NCBI GenBank assembly: GCA_030167865.1
Contig: JALAGF010004276.1
Span: 50,685 to 70,684, forward strand
Reading direction: 5' to 3'
DNA: 20,000 bases
DNA from: Craspedostauros australis
Taxonomy: Eukaryota
Shown: positions 1 to 17,407 of the stretch, piece by piece
Layout of the letters: every line of letters begins with the position of its first letter
Numbering within the stretch: position 1 is the first letter of the stretch
Program-made: the position numbers and the translations under genes
Notes under the pieces: model-generated
What the model saw: only the letters and a program-made list of their open reading frames with translations
What the model was told of the DNA's origin: nothing
Database searches by the model: none

Positions 1-1326
1 AGTTCCTTGCGGACATTGATAATCTGTAGACACCACTAGCAACATTTTCGCTATCCATTTGGTATAGAATAATAAAAACAACCCATGGATTCCATTTCAT
101 TCATATTATATTATATAATGAATTCTATAATATTTTATACAACGGTATGGCATGCAATACAATACAATGATGCATGATGCCTGGATCCACAACACTGGAA
201 ACTAAGGCGGTATTCGTCAATGCGTTGAGGAGGAGAGTGTAGATCGCAGATCATGGCTCGCAGAGTACGAGCTAGTCTTTCCGTTTCGTTTGGAGAATCG
301 GCGGCAGGATCGCGATTGTGCACATGATTCAATCGAGGTGCTGCGGACAACAACAACTCAAGGCGCCTCTCAGTAATCGCTGGTACGTGTGTCGAAGAGG
401 GGCTCGCGGTGAATTGAAAAACAAACATATTCTATCATTTTCATCATAAAAACACGTTCAATACGCATTTCGTCTTTGTTTATTCCTTTCAACTGTGCAC
501 CAAACGACCAACTCGATTAATCTCCAACGACAACACACAATTTTTTGAATCGGCTGTTTGTGAGGCGGTTGGCGAACAAGAGGCACGAAGTAGTGTCGTG
601 TGTGTTCACAACGAGGTTAGGTGTCTCCTCGGCAACACAAACCTGCATTGCGAAAAGCCACAACAACCTGCCTTGTGCGCATTGCTGGATCCACGATCGA
701 TTGCACCCTCCAGGAGCGACGACTACTGCCACGATCACACAGCCCCTTTCACAAGCTCGTCATCTCCCTTGACTACATTGCGCTGCGCTGTACTCGGAGA
801 ACTCTACTTGGGTCCATCGGTGGAAGAGAGTGCAACCACCAACAGGTCCCGTCGCCATCTCGACCGTGAGTCGTCTCCAACCGCGCAAATCCAACAACAC
901 TTCCATCCGTCGATTGACGTGGTCCTCCTGGAGCACGTTGGTCGCCCTTGTTCACATCCAAGCCTTCAGCTGAGGATACGACAAGACAAAGGTGCTGCTT
1001 CGGTCGCAGCGAGGCCCGCATCAACTGAGCATCAAGGCCATCTCCGTCATCGAAGAAAATCATTTGTTTCGCAGCCAACGGTCCATCCCCATCCAAGAAG
1101 GCTATCCGTAGGGAGGCTAGAACTCAACTACTTTCCAATTCGGGCAGATCAACCAAAGTATATTCCTCCATTCATTACTTGGCAGCCCTGATCGACCACT
1201 GGAAACTCATCGACGCCATCGGTATCGTTGCGAGAATCAGAGACCAAACATCCTTAACGAGGACATCGCATCCGTACCAAACATACGCACTGTGAGTCTG
1301 ATCGACCCGCAGCCTCGGAAGCGATC

Positions 1327-4300
1327 ATGAATCCAAATGGCATTGGTGGAAACCCAGTCGGGGGGAGCTCGAATTATCCACGCACACCTGTGCCTCAAGG
1401 AAACCAGCAGCAACTCCACCAGCAACAACTCCACCAGCAGCCACAACTACAACAGCCACACTTTCAACAACCACACTTTCAACAGCAACTCCACGTGCAA
1501 GCACAACGGCAAGTGCAACTCCAAGGAAGTCCGCCCCTCCAAGTCAATCAGAACACCTTCATTCGCCATCACCAGCAGGCCGTGCAGGCTTCGCCTCCTC
1601 TGATCCAGGTGCAGGCGCAGCCAGCGGTGCATCACGTTCGGCCGCACCCACCGCCTGTGCGTCAGGTTCAACTCCCAGCACCGACACAGTACGTCGCACA
1701 AGTGCCCGCCCAGGTTGGACAGACTGCTGGGGTGAAACGAGGATTGCAACCGACTGTGATCGCCCAACACACGGCAGCACCATCGCAGAAGAAGCTCAAG
1801 CCAGTTCCGATCGCACCAAAACTCATCAAACCACCGCCGCAGGCGCAGCCACTGCCTGAACAACAGACTATCGCGCAAGTACCAGCTCCAGCACACACAC
1901 TGCCTGCCGTCCCCACGCACACCAAACATGCAGCATTAGTTCTACCAACCAATGCTTCACCGGGAGTCGTGTTTGCTGCGCCGGCTGCTGCTGCCGCTGC
2001 TGCTGCTATTCTCAATGCGGCTGGGGCTACTACTGAGACTCCTGCTGTTCCTGTTGGGAAAAAGATCATCGTCCCAGCCAAACCCGTCAAACCCTCAGAT
2101 CCAGACGGGCCCGATGAAATCGTCAGCAAGCACCTCAAGCTGCAGCCACCGCCATCCCTTGCGGCCAAAATTCCATCCCTCAACCCCAACGACATCAAGA
2201 CATTGGAGACCTGCCTCGACATCGGACGCACGGAGAAATGGCGCGACGATTGGATCGGAAACCTTGCATTCTTGGACCAGGACGTGACGAACCCAGACAT
2301 CAAGACCAACACTGGGCCCAAGAGACCGCTTCTCCGCTGGGCGCAGAACACGCGCTCGGGGCTCAAGCTGGTCAACTACCTCATCCGTCACGTGTACCAT
2401 CTCCCAGAGACACCCCAGCAGGCGCGGCATATCCTGGCCAACGCAGATCGCAAATCCATCGACGCCATCCAGAACGCAGTACGGCGCGTTTCATACGACC
2501 CCATCGTCCTGCGACAAGATGGCTGGACCACGCAAAAGACCCTAGGTCCAATCGGATCGTCGGGAGGGCCCTATCGCATCGGTGAGCGCGTGTTTTGGCA
2601 GAACTACGAAGGTGTCGTCATTGCTTACATCCACGACCACGATCTGGGAGATCTGTGGAAGGCCATGTGGTTTGATGAATTTGACACCTTCGACCTGGAG
2701 GCAGAGGAGCTGGAAGATGCCCGCCGGAGATACCTGAAACGCATCGCCCCGGCAGCGCAGAAGCGTGCGTCGGGGAAGGAAGGGAAACGGTCGGCGGCCA
2801 CAAGCCCCGTGCCACCGGATGGACGCAGTCGATCGGCACGATACGCCGCAGCAGCCGACTTCACAGTCAAGGGCATCGAGCATGGAATCGTGATGGCTGT
2901 CTCGTACGCAAGAGGCGCTCGACCTGGCGTCTTCTGGCCCGCACGGATCATGCACGCATCCGAAATGACCTCGCCCCTCAGCAAGCGAGGGACGCAGCGA
3001 CAGAAAGTCGACGTCATCTTCCTCGCGCCGTACTGGAACGGAGCTCACGTCATGTCAGGCAGCAAACGGACCGTTGGGTCGTATCACGACAGCCTCACCA
3101 GAACTGGTGGTTCTATCTTCGACATGGGGCCATTGTTCGCGATGGAGAGCATCGATGTTGGCAATGAGACTCTTCAGGAATACCCCTACGACGGAAGCCG
3201 TGGCCTTGACATCGACCAACTACGGGTTGCGTTCAAGTTCGTCGGCCTGCCAAGCGCTGCGTTCTCTCGCTATGTCGATGCGCATCGTCTGGCTGTGTCC
3301 CTGAAGGAGTACGCGCGAAGTCGACTGTCATCCGACAACGACAAAACAACTGCCGGTCTGTTTGAGGTGCACCCCATGTCCGTCCAGACGGCATTGTTCC
3401 CAGCAGCAGCGCTTCAATTGCCGTTTGAACATATTCTGTCTCAAATGCCAACCACCCCTGGTGCGAACGTGTCGGTATTGGTGGCAGACGGTCACACCAC
3501 GCTCGAACCATCCATCCATCTGGGCCGCATCTTGGATTCCATGAAGCCGCTGGCGGATGGAGACGAGGCAGACGCAGGTGCGACAGGCAAGTCCAATGCA
3601 ACTGCAGCAGCAGTGAGTGCTGTTCACAGAGCACGCTCGGTTCCTGCACCCAATCCTTTGCAACTTGCGGTGCAGAAGCGAACTGAGCCGATCCAGCTGG
3701 ATGAATTCATTCACGACTTGCCGTACATCAAACAGGTGATCAAGACGGAATCCAGTCTCTGCAACATCCTCAAGACGTGCATGGAGTTCTTGCTCGAAAT
3801 TGTGCCAGTCGACAAGGCAGCCGTCCAGTCGATGGATGCCCCGACAAAGCGCCTCAAAGCACAGCAGTTCCTCAAGTCCTGGTCCTTTGCAAAGGTGAGT
3901 GCGAGTTCGTCCTTGTTCCGACGTGCTTTGCATTGGCATATTGATGATGACGGTGGGATTTGTGAGAGCCATGTGATCACTTGTCGATGCACTGTGTTGG
4001 ACGAATTGCACTCTTGTATGGTGGTTTTGGAAAGCTCACTGTTGCCTACTGCATTTCTGTCTGGTCATCTTGTTCGTTCATCTTCTGCTGAAAATGATGC
4101 GTCCTCTGCTGGTCTTTCACCGATCATGACACATCGCAGTCACAAGGCGAAGATGCTGCGGGATCCCTTCTGTCTCCAGGCGGAGACGTCATGTATAGGT
4201 TGGAGTGGAGAAAAGCCTGCGAACGTATATACAAGTATTTCATCGGCCGCATGTCGAGCACTGGGTACGGCAATGGTGTCTCGTTCGTCATCACCGACTC

Positions 4301-5887
4301 TCTGTGCAACCAACATCTCACGTCGGCTGGATGCTTCGAGCGCGCGGTTCGCATTCCGGCCGCCATGAAAGCAGCGAAGACGGTGGGTGCCGGCAACAAG
4401 CCAGGCCTGCGACTTCTGACATCAGTGGACAAGTCTTACCTGGAACTAGCAGAGAAAGAGATCATCATCAAGGCCCACAGCAGATCCTACATCAAGCGCA
4501 TGAAGAATCGATGCATGGCTATTGCGCCAAACCAGGATATCGCCGCTCTCACGGAAGACAGCGACGGCAATGGCGGCGAAGACACAAGTGAGTCACAGTG
4601 TTGGAATCGTGATTGAGCGGTGCGGTGGTTGTTGCTGTAGCTGTTTTGGTTGGTGCTGTCGCAATTGTGGTTGTTGCAACACTGTTTCCTTGCATACCAC
4701 AGACTTGACTTGTTCACTCACTTTGTTTCGACATGGCTAACCGATGAACATCATCCTTTTCGCTTGGTAACTGGCGCAACCATTGCACAACGGTTGATAT
4801 AGAGGGTTCTCGGGGAACATGGATGGCAGCCATCGCGGCAGTTGGTGCGGCGATTCAAGGAGTTGACATGATCATGCGAGGGGAATGCGTGAACGGATTC
4901 TGCATTACCCGTCCTCCGGGCCATCATGCTGGTCGTGAGCTGCACCCGATGAACGCCGTGTCCAATGGATTCTGTGTCCTGAATACGGTCGCCTGCGCCG
5001 CCCTGTACGCAGCATCGGCCGTGTCGGACAACGGGATCGGTCTGCGACGTGTTTGTGTGATCGACATCGACGTGCACCACGGCAACGGAACGCAAGATAT
5101 CTTGGGTTCAACGTACGATCCACGGTTTCTGTACGTCTCCGTGCATTCTGGCGGTCCTCAGGTCAACGGCGTCGACCCTGGAGATGATGGGGATATGCCA
5201 TCGCATCATCTCGGCCGCCAGGGATCCAAGGGAATCTACCCTGGCAGATGCGGCGACACGTCTCCGCATCCCGGAGTGTTGAACATCCCTCTTGGTCCCA
5301 AGGTGACCCCGCATGCGTTGGGAACGGCGTTGATCACCAAGATGAAGCCCACCGTTGAGAAGTTCGCACCGGAGCTCATCATTGTATCGGCTGGTTTCGA
5401 TGCGCACAAGAATGACCCGCTGGGGCTCGGTGGTCTGGCCGCGAAGGATTTCGCGACGCTGACGGAAGTCATCTGCCAGGTTGCTCTCAGGATCTGCGGT
5501 GGACGTGTGCTGAGCGTGTTGGAGGGCGGATACGGAGTCCCGTGCTGCAGACCACCAGAGACTCAATTCCTGCCAGACAACCTGAAGCCGTCCGCCGGAG
5601 GTGGCGGCATGGGTACGTCATCACAAACTGCTGCAGCAGCTGGGACGAGCGGAAAGGCAACTGCAAATGGAAGCTCAGGCGCATCAAGTGCACAGACGGT
5701 GCAGCAGGTGATGCAGCAATTGAAGCCGATCCAGTTGCTTGATCTGGGAGACGAATTGCCGGCGAACATGCCGGATCCAGTGACGTACAATCTGGGGAAA
5801 CGGCTGGAGAAGTGCCATGCAGAGGGGTTCATGCATTGCGTCCAGGAGCATGTGCAGACACTGGGCAAGTGCAATACGCTGTCGTAA
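1327..5887 (+). CDS. Class II-like (Rpd3/Hda1 superfamily) Zn-dependent histone deacetylase with long N-terminal extension (Q/P-rich, Tudor-like and PWWP-like segments); 3 exons, ~1366 aa
   Basis: Exons 1327-3894, 4140-4587 and 4803-5887 join in frame (2568+448+1085=4101 nt) using GT-AG sites AAG|gtgagt...cgcag|TCA and ACAA|gtgagt...atatag|AG. HDAC motifs are all present: H..S...FER..RI and KAHSRSY (exon 2), RPPGHHA (from 4910), NGFC, DIDVHHGNGTQ, SVH, YPG, NIPL, SAGFDAH..DPLG and VLEGGY (Tyr at 5531-5533). The start codon is the first ATG of the long ORF. Confidence 0.9.
3895..4139 (+). other. Spliceosomal intron 1 of the HDAC gene (245 nt, phase 0)
   Basis: gtgagt donor after AAG, T-rich interior and cag acceptor at 4137-4139. 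Splicing joins the long ORF to the frame of ORF 4191-4616. The alternative cag at 4177-4179 is out of frame. Confidence 0.8.
4588..4802 (+). other. Spliceosomal intron 2 of the HDAC gene (215 nt, phase 1)
   Basis: gtgagt donor, CTAAC branch-like motif at 4737-4741 and tag acceptor at 4800-4802. The join gives EDT-K-GSRGTWMAAIAAVGA, as expected for the HDAC 'DT...A..A.G' segment. Confidence 0.85.
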
Positions 5888-6090: not shown

Positions 6091-7107
6091 TCATTGCCCG
6101 CTACTCCTGACGATGTTCTGGACTTCTTTTGGCAGCTCGGACAGGCAGTGGATAGTCGATGTGATGTACTTTTGCGCATGTCTCCTTTTCTCATCACGCT
6201 CCGCAATTTCCTCCGGTGTCGCCGTGGACCAGGAGTAGCCGGTGTTCTGCGCCGCCTCTTCCTTCCCGGCCATCCAAATGGCCTTCGCACCACACTTGGC
6301 GCTGGCCGCCACATCATTGACCAAACAATCCCCAACATGAATCCAGCACAAATCATCCTGATCGTCGTCACCACCGCATGCCCGCAACGCCCGTTCAAAG
6401 ATGTACGCATCCGGTTTGCGCCGCGGTCCGGCATGCGTGCCATCTAGATCGTAGTCATCTTCGCCGCTGATACAGGCATCAAAGTAGTCTGCGATCTTGG
6501 GCATCCGCAACGGCGTGCCGGCACCATTCGTGATGGCCAAAATGGTGGCATTGTGCTGCCGCAATGCCTGCAACATGGGAATGGCGGCATCGAAGACATG
6601 GTCGTTGGCGGCCTCGTTGCGCATGCGTTCCCATTGCGCGTAACATGCGGCGACGCGGTTCGTTTGATCGGGAGGTAGGATGGAACGGATGGTGCGTTCT
6701 CGCAAACCGCGGTAAGTAAGTTTGGTGGGCAAGATTTGGGTGCGGATCGTTTTGGTGCGTTGCAAGTATTCGGTCATTCCGAAGAGCGGGTCGTTGTTGT
6801 TGTTGTTGTTGGTATTGTCGAGCCATGTGGGAGCATGTTGATGCAACTCCTGAAGCAGGACGGCGTTGGCAGCTGCGACGACGGGTTGGATTGGGAAGAG
6901 CGTGTCATCCAGATCGAATGTGACGAGGAGCCTGGGTGATTGTGCTGACGATGATGCATCAGCTGTCATCTGCAGCAGCGTTGCTGGTCGGCATGGAGAC
7001 GAGGCGCATGATGTGGCTGCCTTGGGAAGAGATGGCGTGAATGCCGATGACAAGGAACAGAGCATCATGAGCAGACACTGCGTTCGCGTGCGTGCGGTGG
7101 AGACCAT
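6091..7107 (-). CDS. HAD-superfamily hydrolase (subfamily IA, YigB/NANP-like phosphatase), predicted plastid-targeted; 338 aa, intronless
   Basis: Motif I LLVTFDLDDTLF, motif II ITNG, motif III RKPD and motif IV HVGDCLVND. The N-terminus MVSTARTRTQCLLMMLCSLSSA|FTP has a signal peptide and an ASAFAP-like site, followed by a Ser/Ala-rich, acid-free transit peptide ending LLQM. Substrate cannot be determined from sequence. Confidence 0.9.
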   Translation of the reverse strand: MVSTARTRTQCLLMMLCSLSSAFTPSLPKAATSCASSPCRPATLLQMTADASSSAQSPRLLVTFDLDDTLFPIQPVVAAANAVLLQELHQHAPTWLDNTNNNNNNDPLFGMTEYLQRTKTIRTQILPTKLTYRGLRERTIRSILPPDQTNRVAACYAQWERMRNEAANDHVFDAAIPMLQALRQHNATILAITNGAGTPLRMPKIADYFDACISGEDDYDLDGTHAGPRRKPDAYIFERALRACGGDDDQDDLCWIHVGDCLVNDVAASAKCGAKAIWMAGKEEAAQNTGYSWSTATPEEIAERDEKRRHAQKYITSTIHCLSELPKEVQNIVRSSGQ

Positions 7108-7130
7108 GGTGGAGCAGGGTGCTCTACTCT

Positions 7131-7168
7131 GATGTGATGTGATGTGATGTGATGCGGTGTGGTGTGGT
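7131..7168. repeat. Pentamer microsatellite (GATGT)4-GATG decaying into GGTGT units
   Basis: gatgt gatgt gatgt gatgt gatgc ggtgt ggtgt ggt, starting 24 nt upstream of the HAD start codon. Confidence 0.9.
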
Positions 7169-7306
7169 ACGTGCTATGCTTTGTGGTACAAGGTTGAGGC
7201 CAGCGCTTGCTGCCCTTGGACTGTCACTCTTCCTTCGAGAATGGCATGGAGGATGCTTGCGTACCGTTGGCTCGTTCCAAGTGAGATGAACGAACAATCG
7301 CTGCCG

Positions 7307-7944: not shown

Positions 7945-8262
7945 CATCCGCACTCTCTCTAGAGAAAGAATCAGCAGCAGACGAGAACCATAGCAAGAAA
8001 GAGAGTGCGCCCTCTATTCCTTCTCCGGAGTCCCACAGTCAATAGCAGTACTGCCTTCACTCGCAGCGGCAGCAGCGACAAACAAATCGCGAAGCCGGTT
8101 CGAACTGTGGAGCAAGGCCATTTGTCTCTGGCGCCTCATCAAGTCCGGAGCTCCCTTTGCACAGCAAGGCGAAGCAAAGCAAAGCAACACAGAATACTGC
8201 CCACAGGAGAACTTCCATTAGGACTCTGCTCTATTGGGGATCTATTGGGACTGCGGTCGATC

Positions 8263-9423
8263 ATGAACGGGCTGTCCTTTGGCAACGCGATCGGAGGGGG
8301 TGGTAATGGCGGTAATGGCGGCAATGGAAATAGCGGTGGCTCCAATGCGGGCGCATCAGCTGCGAACGCCTCTTCCAATGGATCCGCTGGTGCTGGAAAT
8401 GATGCCTCTGTGGCCACAACAGCGAGTGCGAACGCGAGTATGAACCTTGCCATGGGTGCAAGCAATGTCACTTCCAGCACAGGCGGCAACGCAGGGGGCA
8501 ACAACAACAGCAGCATTAGCAACAGCATTAGCAACAGCCTCAATCTGAATGGCGGCATGATGAACGCGAGTCTCAATCTGGCCATGGGCAACTTGGATCG
8601 CAGCACCGGCAACGCAACGCCCCGTGGGAATGCCAACACCAACGTCAATGGAAACGCCTGGAATGCCCTGTCTTCCATCTCTCAGCAGCAGCCTCAGCAG
8701 CAACAGCAGCAACAACAACAACAACAACAACAAACGCTCGGCTTCCTCGCCAACAAACGATCCAACTTCGACATCAGCAGGACTTCAGCAGGCTTCGCCA
8801 ATCTCACGCCCCAAACAACGAAGCGCCTCAAGCTCAATTCCGGCGCTGCTGCCAACGGCATCCAGCTCCCCATGCAGATGGGCATGCCGATGCCGACACC
8901 CATGATGGGGGGCAATCCATCGCAGCCCGCCTCCACCTCCATGCACAAATCAAACAACAACAACAATGGCGGCATCTCTCAGCAGATGCTGGAACGTCTC
9001 ATGGGTCTGGGAGGTGGTCTGCCCATGCCCAAGGCATGGAAGCGCGCCATCTCGACGCCCAACACTGCGAATTCTGCTGCCGGTGCTGCATCCAGCAATG
9101 CCTTTCAGCAGAACAAAACGTCAGCCAATGATCCATCGCAACAGCGTTCGGCCGTATCACCGGCCGACTCCGAACTGGCCTCGCAGACGGTGGCCCGCTT
9201 GAAGGGAGGATTCCCCATGCCGTCCACGCAAGATACCACCCAGCAGCCGTCCAACGGCATGGATCACCACCACAATAAGCGCCGCACGCAACCAAAACTC
9301 AAGGCCTTCCAAGAAACGTGGCAACAAGCCAACGATCCCTACCTGCGCAAGGAGCTCCTCTTCCGCCAGCTCCACGGCAGTCGGACCAGAGGCATTCACA
9401 ACAACCGCCACAGCTCAACGTGA
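8263..9423 (+). CDS. Hypothetical low-complexity (G/N/S/Q/M-rich) protein, 386 aa, with a short ordered C-terminal motif
   Basis: The first ATG of ORF 8005-9423 is at 8263 (the track start is a GTG). Codon usage is C-ending like neighbouring genes, trinucleotide repeats are in frame (poly-Q, poly-N), a KRLKL basic patch is present, and the C-terminus reads GGFPMP...PKLKAFQETWQQANDPYLRKELLFRQLH. Confidence 0.75.
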   Translation: MNGLSFGNAIGGGGNGGNGGNGNSGGSNAGASAANASSNGSAGAGNDASVATTASANASMNLAMGASNVTSSTGGNAGGNNNSSISNSISNSLNLNGGMMNASLNLAMGNLDRSTGNATPRGNANTNVNGNAWNALSSISQQQPQQQQQQQQQQQQQTLGFLANKRSNFDISRTSAGFANLTPQTTKRLKLNSGAAANGIQLPMQMGMPMPTPMMGGNPSQPASTSMHKSNNNNNGGISQQMLERLMGLGGGLPMPKAWKRAISTPNTANSAAGAASSNAFQQNKTSANDPSQQRSAVSPADSELASQTVARLKGGFPMPSTQDTTQQPSNGMDHHHNKRRTQPKLKAFQETWQQANDPYLRKELLFRQLHGSRTRGIHNNRHSST

Positions 9424-9700
9424 TTTGTCACGCTTTCGCAGTCGTCACGCATCGTGGACAACATGTGGTGATCACCAAAACCCCACATTCCACGATCGTG
9501 GAGGCAAGTTTTTGCGCGCTCACTGATGTGTGCCACATTCACACGGCCAGCAACAACGACGGCGACATCACGCATCAAACGGATCTTCGCGCAGCATGGC
9601 AGAGCACAGTGAAGCAAACCAAAATCCGACCGACCTCCAAAGGACACAAGATCGTTGTTTCGCTCACTTTGCCTGCCTTTTTGCCACCACCGCTACGGCC

Positions 9701-10816
9701 ATGTCCTACAGATTCACCGTCCCTTTCAGCTACCGCTCGAACGGCGCTGCTGCTCCCGCTCCTGTCAACATGACGCAGCCACTACTCAACTGGCGCATGA
9801 ACCCCGACCAAAGCTACAGCGATTGGACGCTCTATGTCACGGTCCGGGAGACCGGCATCACGTCGACCTACCACCTTCACAAGTGCATCGTCGGAGCGGG
9901 TCCGCGCAAGAGCGACTTTCTCATCTCCTGCTTCCAAGCGCAAGAGGAGATGGATGATGACGAATCGTCGTCTCCACCCAAACGGAAGACCAGACGCGAT
10001 GCCACGCGCGGGGACAATCACGCGGTCTCACCGAACAACGCAGTTGACAATGCATCAGCTGACACGGTGGCGAAAACCGTCACGGCCGACGACAATGAGG
10101 ACGCGATGGAAGTGACCAAAACTGAGGAAACCGACGCCGTTCCATCATCATCATCAACAGCCAACGAAAGTGATGCGAAGCTTCCTCTCCCCGCCGCGAA
10201 AGTGTTGCCATTGGTGGAGTCGGTCCGGCAGAATGACGACGGCTACCACCGCGTCACCGAGTCCACCGACTCGGCCTTCGCCTCCGCAGATCAGCGCGAT
10301 ACGACCCACGTCACCCTCGGCTTCGACGCGGCGCAGGCTCTCCCGTTGCTCCTCGACTTCATCTACCCGGAGGTCAAGTTCGCCATGGATCAGGACAACC
10401 TCACCGTCACCACCGCCATCCAACTCCACAACGTGGCAGACTTCTTCCAGGTCGAGGGCCTCATCGATCCCATCAAGAACTTCCTGCGCCGCAAACTAGA
10501 ATGGTCCAACCTCGTCGACTACGTCCACGCCACGCGCGATCACGAGCGTTTCACCCAATGCTACAACTTCATCGCCACGGACATTGCGGCACGTGAGTTT
10601 TCCAGCAACTTTGGAGAAAACAGCGAGGAGTACTACCAGCGCTACACGCAGAACGTCCCCGATTTCCTCTCGCTTGCCTACGACGTCATCACCGGCAAGG
10701 GCCACGATTTGCGTTACGAGCTGAACTGCTACTGGGGTGAGCAGGAGGCAGGTACGGGCAACAACAACAACAATCAGGACGACGTGGTTGTTGACGACGA
10801 CGATGATGACTACTAA
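9701..10816 (+). CDS. BTB/POZ-domain protein (diatom-type), ~371 aa, BTB interrupted by an acidic low-complexity insert
   Basis: LNWRMNPDQSYSDWTLYV...TYHLHKCIVGAGPRKSDFL matches the BTB N-half (SD..l.v...hvHk.il...S.yF). TTHVTLGFDAAQALPLLLDFIY...AIQLHNVADFFQVEGL matches the C-half (f..lldfiY...l...Adyf.v..L). The start is uncertain (ATG 9701 or 9770; 9530 is a GTG). Confidence 0.85.
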   Translation: MSYRFTVPFSYRSNGAAAPAPVNMTQPLLNWRMNPDQSYSDWTLYVTVRETGITSTYHLHKCIVGAGPRKSDFLISCFQAQEEMDDDESSSPPKRKTRRDATRGDNHAVSPNNAVDNASADTVAKTVTADDNEDAMEVTKTEETDAVPSSSSTANESDAKLPLPAAKVLPLVESVRQNDDGYHRVTESTDSAFASADQRDTTHVTLGFDAAQALPLLLDFIYPEVKFAMDQDNLTVTTAIQLHNVADFFQVEGLIDPIKNFLRRKLEWSNLVDYVHATRDHERFTQCYNFIATDIAAREFSSNFGENSEEYYQRYTQNVPDFLSLAYDVITGKGHDLRYELNCYWGEQEAGTGNNNNNQDDVVVDDDDDDY

Positions 10817-11224: not shown

Positions 11225-14200
11225 CTACGAGATGTTAGCATCCTTCAACGACTTTGGTTTGACGGGACCAGCGGATGTCAGCAATCGACAGGCGGTGCCG
11301 TCCTCGGCAACCCAAGTGGCTTCTCCGTCCGCATTCGCCCTCAGCGCTGCCTTCACCCGATCAAAGGCCTTCAAGGCACCCTTCGATTTCATCATCGGAT
11401 CTGGATCCGTCGGGTCTTTGCCTTCCACATTCAGCAATTCACCGTTTGGCACATCCGTTGGCACCTTCAGCAGCTCCACCGTCTCACCTTCCTCCTTGCC
11501 ATCAGTCGCGGCAAGCAGCATGGCGGAGCTTTCGATGCCCCGCATCTTCGATGGCTTCAGATTGGTCACGGCGACGATCTTCGCACCGACCAGCTCCTCG
11601 ATGGGAATCAATCCGGCGAGACCGGCAACCACCGTGCGTGGTTCCGGCGTCGTGCCATCCTCACCGACGTCTCCGCAATCCACCTTGCAGACAAGGAGGC
11701 TGTCGGCGTCGGGATGCTGCTCGGCCTCCAGGATCGTCGCGGCGCGCAGTGCCACGCGCAGGACGTCTTCGGCTGGCTTGGCATTGTTGTTGCCGCCGCC
11801 GCCCTTCTTCCTCTGCTGCTGTTGCTGTTGATGTTGCTTTTGTTTCTGTTTGCCACCCTTCTTGTTGTTGTTGTTGCCGTTGTTTCCACCGGCAGCTCCC
11901 CACGTATCTCTCAACGTCACGACTCTGTTGAAGACAAGATTGTCATCGCCCGTGGTGTCCTTGTCGACGGCGAAGTATCCGCTGCGTTCGAACTGGTACG
12001 CCAAAGAACCTGGGTAGATTATATCTCCACCATCGTCCTTGGTCTTGCTGACTTGTTCCAACAGTCCCTCAACATCCTTCGCCACACTGGGTTCCACCAT
12101 AACGTTCTTGAGCACTTGTAACGAATCCGGGTTGAGATCCTTCAGGAAGTCCCCACTCTCCTTCCCAGGTTCCTCCGTGGTGAACAAGCGATCGTACTGA
12201 TTGACTTGACACGTCACGCCAGTCGACGCCTCCACCCAATGGATAATTCCCTTGACGCGCTTCATGCCCTCGGGTGTGACACCAGCGCGTGTATCGGGAT
12301 AATACGTGCATTTCAATTCGATGGGTTCCTCCGTTTCTGGATCTCTCACGATCTCATCGCATCGAATGACATACGCATACCTCAAACGGACTTGCTGATT
12401 GGGCAGCAGACGCTTGAAGCCCTTTGGTGGCTGACCTTCGGTGGCCTTGCCTTCTGGGCCCTCCGTGTCGAAGAAGTCCGATCGTTCAATGAAGACCTCC
12501 TTGCCGAATGGAATGACACGTTCGCCCATCTCATCCTTCTTGGGATGGCATGGAACAGTGAAGTCCTCGAGGCCGTCTGCGTTGTTTTGCAAGTTGGTTT
12601 GGCAGTGAGTCGGTTAGGTGAAGTTGGGTAAGAATATGCGTTTGCATTAAACATGGGTGGATGACATGCCGTTGGAGTAGTGCCATACCAGCTCCGCGCA
12701 GAAACGCACAACACATGCGTTCGAGTGTATTGTGAACTGACTATCGTCATCGTCGTCGTCATTGCCGTCGCCATCGTCGTTATCGATGTCATCGAAAGCA
12801 AGCAATGCAGTAAACATCGCAGCAGCAGAACGCAGATGCCAACGAATATCCAATGTAGCATCCAACAACGACTCTCACCTTGATCCCAATTCGTAATGGT
12901 AACCTTCAACGGTTTCAGCACGCAAAATGCACGCTTGCAGGCATCGTCCATCTCCAACCGCACGCAGTCCTCCAAATTGGAAAAGGCAATATTCGAATCG
13001 GTCTTGGAGATGCCAACACGTTCGCAGAACAATCGCAGGGCCGACGGCGGCACACCGCGACGGCGCATTCCCGACAAGGTCGGCATGCGTGGGTCGTCCC
13101 ATCCGCTGACGTGCTTCTGTTCGACGAGCTGAATGAGCTTACGCTTCGATAGCACGGTGCTTTGGATGTTGAGACGGCTGAATTCGATCTGCTGTGGTTT
13201 GGCGCCGATGAGTCCTGTGGGCAGGAGCTTGTCGACGGTCCAATCGTAGAAGGGTCTGTGATCTTCGAACTCCAGCGTGCACAGGGAATGGGTGATGCTC
13301 TCCAGCGCATCCGAGATGGGGTGGGAGAAGTCGTACATGGGGTAGATGCACCACTTGTCGCCAGTCGATTGGTGAGATTCGTGCTTGATGCGGTACAGCG
13401 TTGGATCTCTCATGTTGATGTTGGGTGACGCCATATCGATCTTTGCACGCAGCACATGCTCTCCTTCCTTGCAATCTCCGTCTTTCATCTGGGTTGAGAT
13501 GTGGATCGTTCATGGCGGATTCAATAGCAGAAGAGTGAGTGCGGTACGAGAAGGCACATAGGTTTCGCGTGTGCGTGGATGCGTAGATGCATGCATGCAT
13601 GACTTTCAATCGCTCACACTCCAAGTGATCGCCTTCGAAGCCGCCGATATTTCCACCCCATCACCTGGACATTATCTGCCGCCACCTGATATCATGATGT
13701 CATGCAAATACCCGACGACGCACAAAGGAATGAATCCGACATACTCGTACCTTCTGGAACAATTCAAGATTCTCTTCGATACTGCGAGTGCGATACGGTG
13801 ACTCCTTGCCCGGCTCGGTCAACGACCCACGGTACTCTCGCATTTCCTCGGCCGTCAAAGATTCCACGTACGCATCACCTGACTTGATCAGCGCCACAGC
13901 GCAATCGTAAATGGTGCCGAAGTTATCCGACGTGTACCGCACGGAACCCTCCCATGGATCCGCAGCTTGATGCAAACCCGATTGAATCCAGCGCACGTCT
14001 TCCAAAATGGATTGCACGTACTCCTCATCCTCCTTGGTGGGATTGGTATCGTCCATGCGCATGTTGCAATTGCCACCGAACATGCGGGCGACGGCGAAAT
14101 TGAAGCTAACCGCCTTGGCGTGTCCCAGATGCAAGTAGCCATTGGGTTCGGGCGGGAAGCGCGTGGTGATGGTGCCGTCGAACTCCTTGGCAGTGGTGGT

Positions 14201-14356
14201 GTCATCGTTGGCGTCGTCGGTTTGAGCGATGGTCGGCACGATGCCGGTCTCCTCCTGGATGATCTTGGTGATGAAGTTGGGCGCGTATGCGAATCCGGAC
14301 GCTTGCTGGGCCAGGCAGAGCCAGGCGAACGCGGCGCTGGCAGTGACGATCTTCAT
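11225..14356 (-). CDS. glnS: Glutaminyl-tRNA synthetase (GlnRS) with N-terminal signal peptide and C-terminal EMAPII/Trbp111-like tRNA-binding domain; 3 exons, ~855 aa
   Basis: Exons 14356-13751, 13488-12879 and 12576-11225 join in frame (606+610+1352=2568 nt). Motifs: [23 protein letters not shown] (HIGH), [39 protein letters not shown] (KMSKS equivalent), [26 protein letters not shown] and [11 protein letters not shown], all typical of GlnRS. The C-terminal HPDADSL...RTVVAGL...[19 protein letters not shown] is an OB-fold tRNA-binding domain. Confidence 0.95.
12577..12878 (-). other. Spliceosomal intron 2 of GlnRS (302 nt, phase 1)
   Basis: On the minus strand: G|gtgaga donor, CCTAAC branch-like motif near 12613-12618 and cag acceptor. 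The join gives [18 protein letters not shown]. Confidence 0.85.
13489..13750 (-). other. Spliceosomal intron 1 of GlnRS (262 nt, phase 0)
   Basis: On the minus strand: AAG|gtacga donor and ccag|ATG acceptor. The join gives [26 protein letters not shown], collinear with the conserved 'LF..M..G....G...LRAKIDM'. Confidence 0.9.
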
Positions 14357-14615: not shown

Positions 14616-15566
14616 TATAATAGCTTGGAAGAAAAGATCGGGTTGATGAATGAGCGCGATCGGCAGTTGCTTCGATTGTGTCAGTGATCAGAACTTTGTT
14701 CTGCCGAACAGAATCGGAACAATGATACTCTCTTGTCGACGAAGGAAAGGAACGCACAACGAGTGATTCTGATGGCACATGCGTTTGCGTCTCAGAAACG
14801 ATGGCGATGATGATGATGATGATGTGGTCGCGCTGATGTCGGTGGCTGACTGTGTGCGATGTCGGATGCTCTGTCCCTCTTGCGAATGCACAACACATCA
14901 ATTCCAACCAAACAAATCCAAACGTCAACAGACACCAACGCAAAGCACACAAAACGGATCCACTTTTTGTCTGCACCATGCTTGTGCACCACTGGCATCA
15001 CCCAGCAGAGTGACGTGTTTGTGCGACACAAAGGATCAAAGTCGAGAATGCGATGTATTTCCATTCGTGGATGTTCCATTCGATCCCTCCGTGTTTCAAA
15101 ATGTCTGAATTTGACGCCTCCTTGCGTCCGCGACAAAAAAACGGTCCCATCAAATGACAAAGCCAACCACATGGAAGTCACATCCGATGCAACACCAACG
15201 CAACTGAACACGGTTGAGCACTCCATAGATCATGCCACAGTGCAACACAATCCCTAACCCATCCCACTTCATACCATCTTGCTCGCACTCGTACTTTCGA
15301 TCTTGCATCACCAAACATCCCATCACGCAGCGTTCCCACAACGATGGTCCTGCCGTGCAAGACTCATCCTGAGCTTTGTTTCCCGGCGCGCTCTTGCGAC
15401 CACAACCGTGCCGATTGAGCGACGCTACTTCTCATCATTTGTTGCCTTTCCCATTCCACCGCAAAGCAAGCTGGGCTGCGATAAATCGTCGAAACAACCA
15501 TCGCACATACCCAAAATCCATTGGCGTTCACTTCCCAAACGCCGACATCTGAACAGGGCCACCACG

Positions 15567-17152
15567 ATGATGAGACTCGACCAGCAACGCCTCTTGATGT
15601 GCCACCGGCGATTTCGGATCGCCAACGTCCTCTGCCTCATCGGTGTGGCGGTCACGCTGCTGTGGGCTGCTAATCTGTTCATCATGAATGAACTCAGCGA
15701 GATGCATGCCAGCCAGTACCGCAACAGAGGGTTGATGCCGACAATGCCATTGCGCGAAGGTGGGCGGGTGATACTCAACACAACGGCAAGCGCATCTTTG
15801 GAGCAGCAGAAACTGACGATATCGCTCCCGAGATTTCATTTCGAATCGTCGGCACTGCCATCATCACTATCATCGACATCGTCAGTTCCAGAGTCACCGT
15901 CACGAGAGACTGAAAACGTTCACGCAAATGCACCGTACCAGCACCAGCAGCAACAGCAACAGAGCTCGCACAACAACGGCAGCGAATCGAGCATTACGCA
16001 GGTCATTCTCGACAGTCAGCAGAACAAGCCATCCAACATCTTGCACATCGTCACCACACGGTTCATGCAATTCCAGCCCCATCTCCTGCATCTGGGCGTG
16101 GCGAGACTGTGGCTGTTCGAGACGTTCTGCTTGCCACCCATGATCCATCAGCTGGAAAAAGATTTCGTGTGGGCCATCCTCGTCGATCCCGACCTGCCCG
16201 ACATCCTCCTGCAGCACATGATGCAGCTGCTGCGACCCTACCCCAACTTCTACCTGATCCGCAGCAACAGCGCACGATTTACCATGGACGATCTGACGGC
16301 CACGCCGGTACGGACGGGCAACATCACGCACCTTCAGGAAATGCTGACCGATCCCCGACGCAACCTGGTGCTGCAAACACGCGTCGATGCCGACGACGGC
16401 ATTCACCGTAAGACCATCTGGGCATTGCAAAACAAGGCGCGGCAGCTCATGCACGTGAACGCGGCCGGTTGGAAGATCATCTGCGCCAAATTGAACTACG
16501 AGTGGCGCAACATGAACATCATGCAAAGCACGTTGGCGTCAGAGAAGGTGGGATCGGGGAAACTCCGGATCGTGCAAGAACAGATTTGCATCACGCCGGG
16601 ATTGACGATGGCGTACGCGCGCAACACGACCGCCGACAATGCGCAGCCGCTGTTGATTCCGCCGCCCGTGCAGCACCAGCTGATCAATCGCAAATGGTCA
16701 CCCTGCAAAGATCCGCCGCATGCCTCCTCCGCCAACTGCTGGACGAGATTGCCCGGCTTCCCGGCCGCCATCCGTTCCCGCACCATCACAAGCGCCGGCA
16801 TGAGCCGCATCAACGCCGAACCGAAACACGACAACTCCACGGACACCCTGTGGAGACTCCTGAGTCGCGACTACCACATCCCGCGCGATCACGCTCAGCA
16901 AACGTCGGGCTATTTGCACGATCATTTGCAAGACATTGTGAAAGACAATTTGGATGGGCAGTGGTACGTCTTTGTGGAGCGTTGTCATTGTATGATTGTT
17001 GCACTGGTTTCTAATCGGCTTTACTTGACTCACTTTGTATCTTTCGTATCCACAGCTCACATGGCCACAGTTGCAAGAAAAGCAGCAAGAAGAAGTTGGA
17101 ATCGGTGCTGGATCAGACCTGGAATGATACGAGGGTGTTGTGGCAGCCGTAA
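15567..17152 (+). CDS. Putative glycosyltransferase (resembles the 'putative rhamnosyl transferase' GT-A-like family), type II membrane protein; 2 exons, ~497 aa
   Basis: Exons 15567-16963 and 17056-17152 (1397+97=1494 nt). A basic N-tail (HRRFR) precedes a TM helix (IANVLCLIGVAVTLLWAANLFIM) and an S/Q-rich stem. The catalytic-like domain has HIVTTRF...RLWLFETFCLP.MI.Q...DFVW...VDP.LP and a DxD-type TRVDADD. The spliced C-terminus reads NLDGQCSHGHSCKKSSK. Confidence 0.75.
16964..17055 (+). other. Spliceosomal intron of the putative glycosyltransferase (92 nt, phase 2)
   Basis: TG|gtacgt donor, T-rich interior with ctaat/ctcac branch-like motifs and cacag|C acceptor. Splicing creates the Cys of GQC..GHSCK. 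Confidence 0.8.
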
Positions 17153-17407
17153 ATAATAATAGAATAGAGCAGCATGTATTGTACGGGGATAGGCCTTTAT
17201 GTACGTGACATGACTCAAACAGCAAACAGCGAAAACGCCGAAAATCCAACACAGAGTGGCCTGAATGGCTGGCTCTGCTTCAACAAGGGAAGTTTGGCGC
17301 AAGCGCAGAGCCCAAACACAACACACCAAACTGGGATGAATCAAGTTGATTCGATCACTTCACTTCACGCAGCTCGCCAAATAGCCTCGCTCACCTCCGC
17401 ATCCACA

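Follow-up and report, generated by a model that had tools for sequence, protein, structure and literature searches.

We analysed a 20,000-nucleotide (nt) stretch of the genome of the diatom Craspedostauros australis (assembly GCA_030167865.1, contig JALAGF010004276.1, positions 50,685 to 70,684 of the forward strand), hereafter the window, and found on its minus strand a three-exon nuclear gene for a bacterial-type glutaminyl-tRNA synthetase (GlnRS) with a C-terminal EMAPII-like domain. Based on its sequence, a structural model and analogy with characterised tRNA-binding proteins, we propose that this is an organellar, predicted plastid, GlnRS whose linker and OB domain probably act together as a cis-acting tRNA-capture module. 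Full-text searches of the openly readable literature revealed no description of a GlnRS bearing an EMAPII- or Trbp-type domain. As far as we could find, this is an undescribed pairing: a well-known accessory domain on a synthetase not known to carry it, with a predicted organellar location.

A GlnRS gene with an appended EMAPII-like domain

Reading of the DNA, together with a script check, placed the exons at 14356..13751, 13488..12879 and 12576..11225 on the minus strand. They splice to 2568 nt, corresponding to 855 codons plus a TAG stop, and the two introns (262 and 302 nt) are both of the GT..AG type, which reproduces the 855-amino-acid (aa) product given in a first-pass annotation of this DNA. 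The same annotation had described a frame running without an intron from the GlnRS core into the C-domain, and the strings that it quoted, including HPDAD and RTVVAGL, read exactly, down to the stop at 11227..11225. Frame 11225..12613 of the minus strand runs through 462 codons and is uninterrupted by stops in the core-to-domain stretch: the W codon of RDTW at the end of the core finishes at 11900, and the first base of the linker is 11899. A linker of about 43 aa and a domain of about 180 aa had been proposed; both are present, with exact sizes by landmarks of 42 aa and 182 aa. The features of the gene are as follows, all on the minus strand.

13751..14356, minus: exon 1, 202 aa, from the ATG (14356..14354) to a GT donor; presequence, then the N-terminal half of the class I catalytic domain, including HLGH (HIGH motif) at residue 76; PF00749, E 7.5e-44
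14279..14356, minus: presequence, 26 aa; hydrophobic signal-peptide-like stretch ending ASG, then FAYAP (residues 22-26), then the core start NFITK
13489..13750, minus: intron 1, 262 nt, GT..AG, phase 0; the PF00749 profile match is continuous over the junction
12879..13488, minus: exon 2, 203 codons + 1 nt; remaining half of the catalytic domain, including VLSKR (KMSKS type) at residue 314; PF00749, E 9.2e-51; TIGR00440, 288 bits
12577..12878, minus: intron 2, 302 nt, GT..AG, phase 1; homologues are collinear over the junction
11900..12576, minus: exon 3, first part; anticodon-binding beta-barrels to residue 631; PF03950, E 2.3e-19, and PF20974, E 1.7e-17; TIGR00440 positions 337-522 of 524
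11774..11899, minus: linker, 42 aa (residues 632-673); low-complexity DNA rich in CAA/CAG/AAC
11228..11773, minus: EMAPII-like tRNA-binding domain, 182 aa (residues 674-855); OB fold PF01588 (11438..11749, E 6.4e-26) plus C-terminal subdomain
11519..11557, minus: K746/R751/S755/M758 motif, 13 residues, with the spacing of Trbp111 K73..F78..S82..M85 and of Arc1p K269/R274/S278/M281
11225..11227, minus: stop codon TAG, from the DNA reading

A domain search, which the first-pass annotation had suggested, recovered PF00749, PF03950, PF20974 and PF01588, all far beyond chance. PF00749 is matched over profile positions 2-131 on exon 1 and 134-313 of 314 on exon 2, hence the first splice rejoins one continuous domain, and this match plus the HIGH and KMSKS signature motifs identify a class I Rossmann catalytic domain. 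It is followed on exon 3 by two anticodon-binding barrels of the GlnRS/GluRS (eukaryotic-archaeal) type (PF03950, PF20974) and by tRNA_bind (PF01588), which covers exon-3 residues 277-380 and profile positions 1-95 of 96.

By profile scores, the core is a GlnRS rather than a GluRS. The NCBIfam model TIGR00440 (glnS) scores 183.9, 288.2 and 152.7 bits on exons 1, 2 and 3, a rough sum of 625 bits against a cut-off of 425.8, with the exons scored as separate pieces. The archaeal-type GluRS model TIGR00463 reaches 119.3 and 163.5 bits and has no listed match on exon 3, and the GlnRS models (glnS, PRK14703) outscore the GluRS models on each exon. Exon 2 is 58-64% identical to bacterial GlnRS among the 80 best of 594 confirmed prokaryotic loci. 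These scores, along with the position of the clade inside bacterial GlnRS described below, agree with the bacterial-type core that had been claimed for this protein. The eukaryotic GlnRS N-terminal (GatB-like) domain, likewise claimed to be missing, was not found: PF00749 is the only Pfam match on exon 1, and 26 residues precede the core. We also considered a Deinococcus-type fusion of GlnRS with YqeY, as the GlnRS/YqeY model NF011291 scores best on all three exons. This candidate was rejected, since the match covers the model to position 588 of 769 and does not reach the YqeY part, and Pfam finds tRNA_bind and no YqeY family on exon 3.

The appended domain is more than a bare OB barrel. A C-terminal subdomain of some 60-70 residues marks the monomeric EMAPII, TyrRS-C and Arc1p-C proteins, as opposed to the dimeric Trbp111 and CsaA. 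In a PDB sequence search (HMMER) with the last 189 residues of the protein (window 11228..11794), the best match was the C-domain of human TyrRS, 1NTG (E 2.9e-24), aligned from query residue 13 to 189 with residues 9-170 of a 172-residue chain, an alignment that extends as far as the C-terminal SLK..NIS. Human AIMP1/EMAPII came next (E about 4e-19, query 6-161), Arc1p-C was weaker, and the short forms Trbp111 and archaeal MetRS-C match query residues 8-101 only; NCBIfam MetRS models match exon-3 residues 239-381. An AlphaFold2 model of the domain, built from a 36-sequence alignment, had a mean pLDDT of 96.0 and a pTM of 0.89. When this model was compared to the PDB with Foldseek, 1NTG again ranked first (TM query/target 0.82/0.90, root-mean-square deviation 1.6 Å, 38% identity), with Arc1p-C at 0.80/0.87 and EMAPII at 0.80/0.91. 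All of the top seven hits are EMAPII-type, four of them entries of EMAPII/p43 and one the C-domain of Plasmodium vivax p43, with target TM of 0.80-0.92; they align over 178-189 columns, against about 105-125 columns and a query TM of ~0.5 for Trbp111, CsaA and MetRS-C. Because TyrRS-C aligns end to end, because the model and the Foldseek ranking agree with it, and because the short forms cover only part of the query, the C-terminal domain is, by sequence and predicted structure, a full eukaryote-type EMAPII fold made of an OB barrel and the C-terminal subdomain. The EMAPII/Arc1p-type rather than Trbp111-type tail of the first-pass annotation is borne out by the same alignments.

Within this fold, K746, R751, S755 and M758 have a spacing identical to that of the 3'-end-binding residues of Arc1p and Trbp111, an equivalence read from spacing and from the text of the papers rather than from a residue-level alignment to those chains. 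The motif aligns with NLKPAKMRG..S..M of human AIMP1 and with its TyrRS-C equivalent. Across 142 fused proteins (141 homologues and the window's own), K..R...S..M was present in 138; K and S were kept in all 138, and an R stood at the F78/R274 stacking position in 127 of the 138.

The linker of the window protein is 88% G/N/Q/S/K/R and contains 9 K/R and no D/E. Homologue linkers are variable in sequence (median 31 aa, range 19-57) yet always in frame; among the 123 proteins in which both landmarks were found, 102 have a linker with a net positive charge. In its N/Q/G low-complexity coding bias the GlnRS linker resembles an open frame elsewhere in the window (7963..9423, plus strand, 486 codons), which is N/G/S/Q-rich, contains a run of ~17 glutamines and matches no Pfam family at E <= 0.001.

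Distribution and history of the fusion

To place the gene among its relatives, exon 3 was searched against proteins longer than 789 aa. Among 7996 scored candidates, 230 matched at E <= 0.001, and each of the 120 matches listed carries all four Pfam families, with 41-67% identity on exon 3. No protein identical to the window product was present among the matches of this search. The diatoms named among those listed are Cylindrotheca, Pseudo-nitzschia, Seminavis, Thalassiosira, Cyclotella, Chaetoceros, Helicotheca, Entomoneis, Fistulifera, Mayamaea, Odontella and Amphora; the bolidophyte Triparma is also represented, and several of the homologues are assembled MMETSP transcripts marked 'type:complete'. 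Over the core, the window protein is 83% identical to a protein of Pseudo-nitzschia multistriata. The four-domain architecture can be seen in the precomputed Pfam annotation of more than 100 public proteins. The first-pass annotation had allowed that it might already be common and characterised: common and automatically annotated in databases it is, but no characterising paper was found in the literature searched.

Searches seeded with two distant fused members, together with cluster look-ups, extended the fusion to a protein (P0296) of a chrysophyte labelled H2 and to a cluster (P0304) that contains a sequence of the cryptophyte Geminigera cryophila. Unfused relatives of the same clade, from Ochromonas danica (P0328), Epipyxis sp. 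(P0323) and Phaeomonas parva (P0338), end a few residues after the core. Set beside these named relatives, P0296 provides natural pairs with and without the domain inside one algal class. A script run on 376 proteins found a complete core in 207, of which 141 have the C-domain and 64 lack it; sorted by N-terminal extension, 42 of the 64 unfused proteins are bacterial-like and 22 eukaryote-like.

Separate phylogenies of core and C-domain, also proposed in the first-pass annotation, proved congruent. The core tree (maximum likelihood, LG+G4, short search, SH-aLRT support) contained 96 rows and 552 columns: the window protein and 12 named diatom proteins, 28 more fused proteins, 22 unfused proteins of eukaryote-like type, 11 bacterial-type proteins and 22 bacterial open reading frames (ORFs), these last being every third of the 64 that were extracted. 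Some 100 additional fused proteins of the diatom type were left out, as were most of the near-identical bacterial 558-aa proteins, and one row, L004_b, was disregarded as a bad ORF extraction (branch length 10). The 41 fused rows and 20 unfused eukaryote-like rows form one clade with a support of 99, nested among bacterial GlnRS, while P0334 and P0360, labelled beforehand as eukaryote-like unfused, grouped with bacterial or unplaced rows. Fused rows make up the first-branching, cryptophyte-containing subclade, 20 of the 21 diatom/bolidophyte rows and 16 of the 35 chrysophyte-containing rows. Mapped onto this tree, the 'fused' label requires 7 changes, at least 5 of them forced by well-supported branches. 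The C-domain tree (41 fused rows, 181 columns) displays the four groups seen in the core tree and needs 3 changes to do so, as few as can be. Since the separate trees recover the same groups, core and C-domain have travelled together; this analysis suggests one old fusion followed by several later losses as the simplest reading. The chimeric enzyme envisaged in the first-pass annotation is borne out by these data, although that annotation had overlooked the presequence and the organellar paralogue, the wide algal distribution, and the apparently ancient fusion with losses.

A different combination was observed in P0342 (683 aa) and P0420 (693 aa), in which, by precomputed annotation, a related bacterial-type core carries WHEP-TRS (PF00458) in place of tRNA_bind. 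In the core tree, P0342 branches immediately outside the clade of algal proteins. WHEP-TRS would be a further eukaryote-type appendage on the same core, distinct from the EMAPII-like domain. As to the source of the EMAPII-like domain, a Protein Atlas query for the C-domain with GlnRS families excluded returned stand-alone tRNA_bind clusters only, the commonest phyla being Ascomycota, Oomycota and Streptophyta (scores 0.95-0.96); we regard these clusters as a lead on a eukaryotic donor, not as evidence.

A more far-reaching scenario can be drawn from the same distribution, which we consider possible but doubtful. The fusion may have arisen once, in the ancestor of the cryptophyte/ochrophyte organellar GlnRS, and been lost later in several lineages. 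It would then be one of the rare derived characters that these complex red plastids share in their nucleus-encoded proteome, and so a link between them. The fusion may also have let a foreign GlnRS take over the cyanobacterial-type tRNA-Gln, displacing GluRS/GatCAB, and the OB domain could then be both a capture device and a deacylase of the Arc1p/MCP1 kind.

Predicted plastid location and proposed tRNA capture

Diatom plastid-targeted proteins bear a bipartite presequence with an 'ASAFAP'-type motif, and the hallmark of stromal import in diatom plastids is a signal peptide followed at +1 by an aromatic residue. The window protein begins with a 21-residue hydrophobic stretch ending ASG, followed by FAYAP and then NFITK, with the aromatic F directly after the predicted cleavage site of the signal peptide, at +1 (G|FAYAP). 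By the crude measure of Kyte-Doolittle hydrophobicity, the best 9-residue mean in the first 26 residues is 2.13. We surveyed the N-termini of the 142 fused proteins, 132 of which have a recognisable core start. F-A-x-A-P directly precedes the core in 90 of the 132, itself preceded by G, S, A or C; the exact FAYAP occurs in 87 of the 132, and L replaces F (L-A-[YF]-A-P) in 15 more. Among the 90 proteins with F-A-x-A-P, 84 start with M, and 81 of these 84 have a hydrophobic 9-mer of at least 1.8. Examples of FAYAP abutting the core are the window protein itself (14279..14293, minus strand) and homologues P0004, P0007, P0035, P0039, P0079 and P0088.

These features agree with published predictions for diatom synthetases. 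Gile et al. 2015 (PMC4494062) report that Phaeodactylum and Thalassiosira each have two GlnRS loci, with glnRS1 predicted to be cytosolic and glnRS2 plastid; gatA and gatB are predicted to be mitochondrial, so that the plastid is left to use a GlnRS and the mitochondria were judged not to need one. They also describe many diatom organellar aminoacyl-tRNA synthetases as dual-targeted. Given its N-terminal signal-peptide-like stretch and F-A-Y-A-P motif, the window gene is, at the level of sequence, the organellar paralogue, an orthologue of diatom glnRS2. From the presequence and the glnRS2 prediction, we infer a plastid location for the window GlnRS.

In the mechanism that we propose, an algal ancestor would have acquired a bacterial-type GlnRS core, which would have gained a signal peptide with the aromatic +1 motif (G|FAYAP) for import over the complex-plastid membranes, and, at its C-terminus, a low-complexity linker of basic character together with an EMAPII-like OB domain of the eukaryotic type. 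The enzyme would charge plastid tRNA-Gln directly, replacing the route by GluRS and amidotransferase. Linker and OB domain would capture tRNA in cis, as the Lys-rich middle region and OB domain of Arc1p do in trans: the basic linker would touch the tRNA body, whilst the OB pocket (K746, R751, S755, M758) would grip the single-stranded 3' CA end. Such capture may raise the local tRNA concentration and lower the Michaelis constant (Km) for tRNA, after which the acceptor end would be passed to the catalytic site. Precedent for both contacts exists. Juru et al. 2024 (PMC11286949) describe capture of the single-stranded 3' CA end of tRNA (C75-A76) by the Trbp/EMAPII OB fold, through K73, R75, I77, F78, S82 and M85 of Trbp111 and K269, V271, M273, R274, S278 and M281 of Arc1p. 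According to the same paper, tRNA binding by Arc1p requires the basic middle region, which contacts the tRNA body, as well as the OB domain, and PMC12021450 quotes deletion of the linker as abolishing it. Conservation of the 3'-end-binding residues strengthens the capture-module reading, and from sequence and analogy we infer both tRNA binding by the domain and a kinetic benefit.

Several observations weigh against this interpretation. The N-terminus lacks a transit-peptide-like stretch: FAYAP alone, 5 residues, lies between the predicted cleavage site and the core. As this spacer is far shorter than a usual transit peptide, stromal location is a prediction and not a certainty; a near-absent spacer is unusual for a stromal protein, and any transit function would overlap the mature enzyme. 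By analogy with the characterised proteins, the OB pocket would bind the same tRNA 3' end that must enter the GlnRS active site, which rules out a simple 'extra grip during catalysis' and means that a hand-off must be assumed. The module is also dispensable in some lineages, since about 20 eukaryote-like relatives within this clade have no such domain and stop 2-9 residues past the core, apart from one outlier at 22. Finally, mapping of one C. australis RNA run gave a single 469-nt contig on 11185..11651, with 1 mismatch, which bridges neither linker nor introns and so speaks neither for nor against continuity; four short low-complexity matches of this run at 11813..11850 belong to other sequences.

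The C-domain might instead be chiefly an aminoacyl-tRNA deacylase, a proofreading module that would clear mischarged tRNAs in a plastid whose editing repertoire is reduced. Watkins et al. 2025 (PMC12021450) found that the EMAPII-type OB folds of Trypanosoma brucei MCP1 and of Arc1p from yeast deacylate tRNAs bearing small amino acids, including Ala-tRNA, and that mutation of K326, R331 or S335 abolishes activity. The same K-x4-R-x3-S triad occurs here (K746, R751, S755) and is kept in the motif-bearing homologues, in the proportions given above; the Lys-rich linker that full MCP1 activity needs in that study also has a basic counterpart in the window protein. The same residues, however, serve plain 3'-end binding, so that their conservation cannot separate the two roles. 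The Ala/Gly/Ser preference reported in PMC12021450 does not match Glu, the error most relevant to tRNA-Gln, and a synthetase with a deacylase attached would be in danger of hydrolysing the product that it makes. We therefore judge deacylation as the chief role, on the strength of analogy, to be improbable. We hold an enzyme that is not, or not only, stromal to be equally unlikely. It might be dual-targeted to the mitochondrion or stay in the endoplasmic reticulum or periplastidial space, with the C-domain serving another tRNA pool or assembly and trafficking there. The five-residue spacer, in place of an ordinary transit-peptide-like stretch, would fit such a location, as would the frequency of dual targeting among diatom organellar synthetases (PMC4494062) and the long presequences of different kinds on more distant fused homologues. 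Opposed to it are the hydrophobic N-terminus with F (or, in 15 more, L) at +1 that the great majority of proteins in the diatom clade share, and the predictions for Phaeodactylum and Thalassiosira (PMC4494062), in which glnRS2 is 'plastid' in both and mitochondrial gatA/gatB should spare the mitochondria a GlnRS.

Least credible by far is that no GlnRS-EMAPII polypeptide exists and that the fusion is an artefact of annotation or reading, produced by two adjacent genes or by an unspliced intron read through. Such an error would be helped by the low-complexity DNA of the linker, a region that the RNA run from this species does not cover. It is contradicted by the 462 open codons without a stop between core and domain, and by the 120 listed long homologues, all with four domains in one polypeptide and some of them transcripts marked complete. 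The 141 fused proteins counted by script, whose linkers vary in length yet stay in frame, and the congruence of the core and C-domain trees point the same way. On this sequence evidence from homologues, an annotation artefact is excluded for practical purposes. A predicted plastid GlnRS with a linker and OB domain acting as a tRNA-capture module in cis is thus the reading that we retain as probable.

Related systems, gene context and significance

The closest known relatives of the gene are the diatom glnRS2 loci of Phaeodactylum (KR017897) and Thalassiosira (KR025342) (PMC4494062), which share with it the status of a second GlnRS locus, a signal-bearing N-terminus and a plastid prediction. 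Diatom glnRS2 and the window protein fall in the same orthologue group as the named diatom proteins. The main text of PMC4494062 does not contain the terms 'tRNA-binding', 'EMAP', 'C-terminal' or 'bacterial', from which it follows that neither the extra C-terminal domain nor the bacterial affinity of the GlnRS core is discussed there.

The two-part fold of the C-domain is shared with human TyrRS (1NTG), AIMP1/p43 EMAPII (1E7Z, 1EUJ, 1FL0) and Arc1p-C (4R1J), at target TM of 0.87-0.91 and 30-38% identity. TyrRS-C and AIMP1 also have the NLKP.KMRG..S..M motif, and in Arc1p and AIMP1 the domain is likewise placed after a basic or Lys-rich linker. What differs is the host: known EMAPII-type domains occur on cytosolic TyrRS, MetRS and LysRS (Entamoeba, 4UP7) and on scaffolds of multisynthetase complexes, whereas here the host is a predicted organellar, bacterial-type GlnRS. 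The window protein also has no GST-like domain.

Appended tRNA-binding modules are known from other synthetases. The tRNA-binding domain appended to MetRS lowers the Km for tRNA, and in a study of Deinococcus radiodurans GlnRS the YqeY domain reportedly helps tRNA-Gln binding. The D. radiodurans GlnRS-YqeY protein (PMC1865053) resembles the window protein in being a bacterial-type GlnRS with a C-terminal appendage after the anticodon-binding domain; YqeY is, however, unrelated to the tRNA_bind domain of the window protein. Plant and nematode MetRS with EMAPII-like C-domains (the nematode enzyme is cited in PMC9136112) similarly carry tRNA_bind in cis at the C-terminus of a class I synthetase. 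These systems differ in that the synthetase is MetRS, and the Trbp111-like C-domains of bacterial and archaeal MetRS are short and dimeric, covering residues 8-101 of the query. Plasmodium QRS is described as having a short basic C-terminal extension only and no EMAPII domain.

The remaining frames of the window include a histone deacetylase domain (4748..5887, plus strand; PF00850, E 4.4e-53), a HAD-type hydrolase (6091..7173, minus strand; PF00702, E 1.4e-12) and a putative rhamnosyl transferase (15258..17156, plus strand; PF11316, E 1.8e-13). These are ordinary nuclear gene context with no link to the GlnRS fusion. Two further plus-strand frames, 1258..4368 (1036 codons) and 9527..10816 (429 codons), match no Pfam family at E <= 0.001.

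The normal plastid route to Gln-tRNA-Gln is indirect, via a non-discriminating GluRS and an amidotransferase. Diatoms are one exception to this route, and the gene described here shows how the exception is made up: a bacterial-type GlnRS joined to a eukaryotic tRNA-binding module. The advance is incremental, because synthetases with an appended tRNA-binding domain are a well-established principle and public databases already contain these proteins. With this gene, GlnRS nonetheless joins the short list of synthetases with an EMAPII-like domain, and the domain is placed, by prediction, inside an organelle, away from any multisynthetase complex. The family would be a natural, cis-tethered test case for two claims about the fold, 3'-CA capture (2024) and an intrinsic deacylase activity (2025), and offers natural controls, since fused and unfused forms coexist within one clade. 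Beyond the enzyme itself, the fusion may serve as a marker for the history of red complex plastids.

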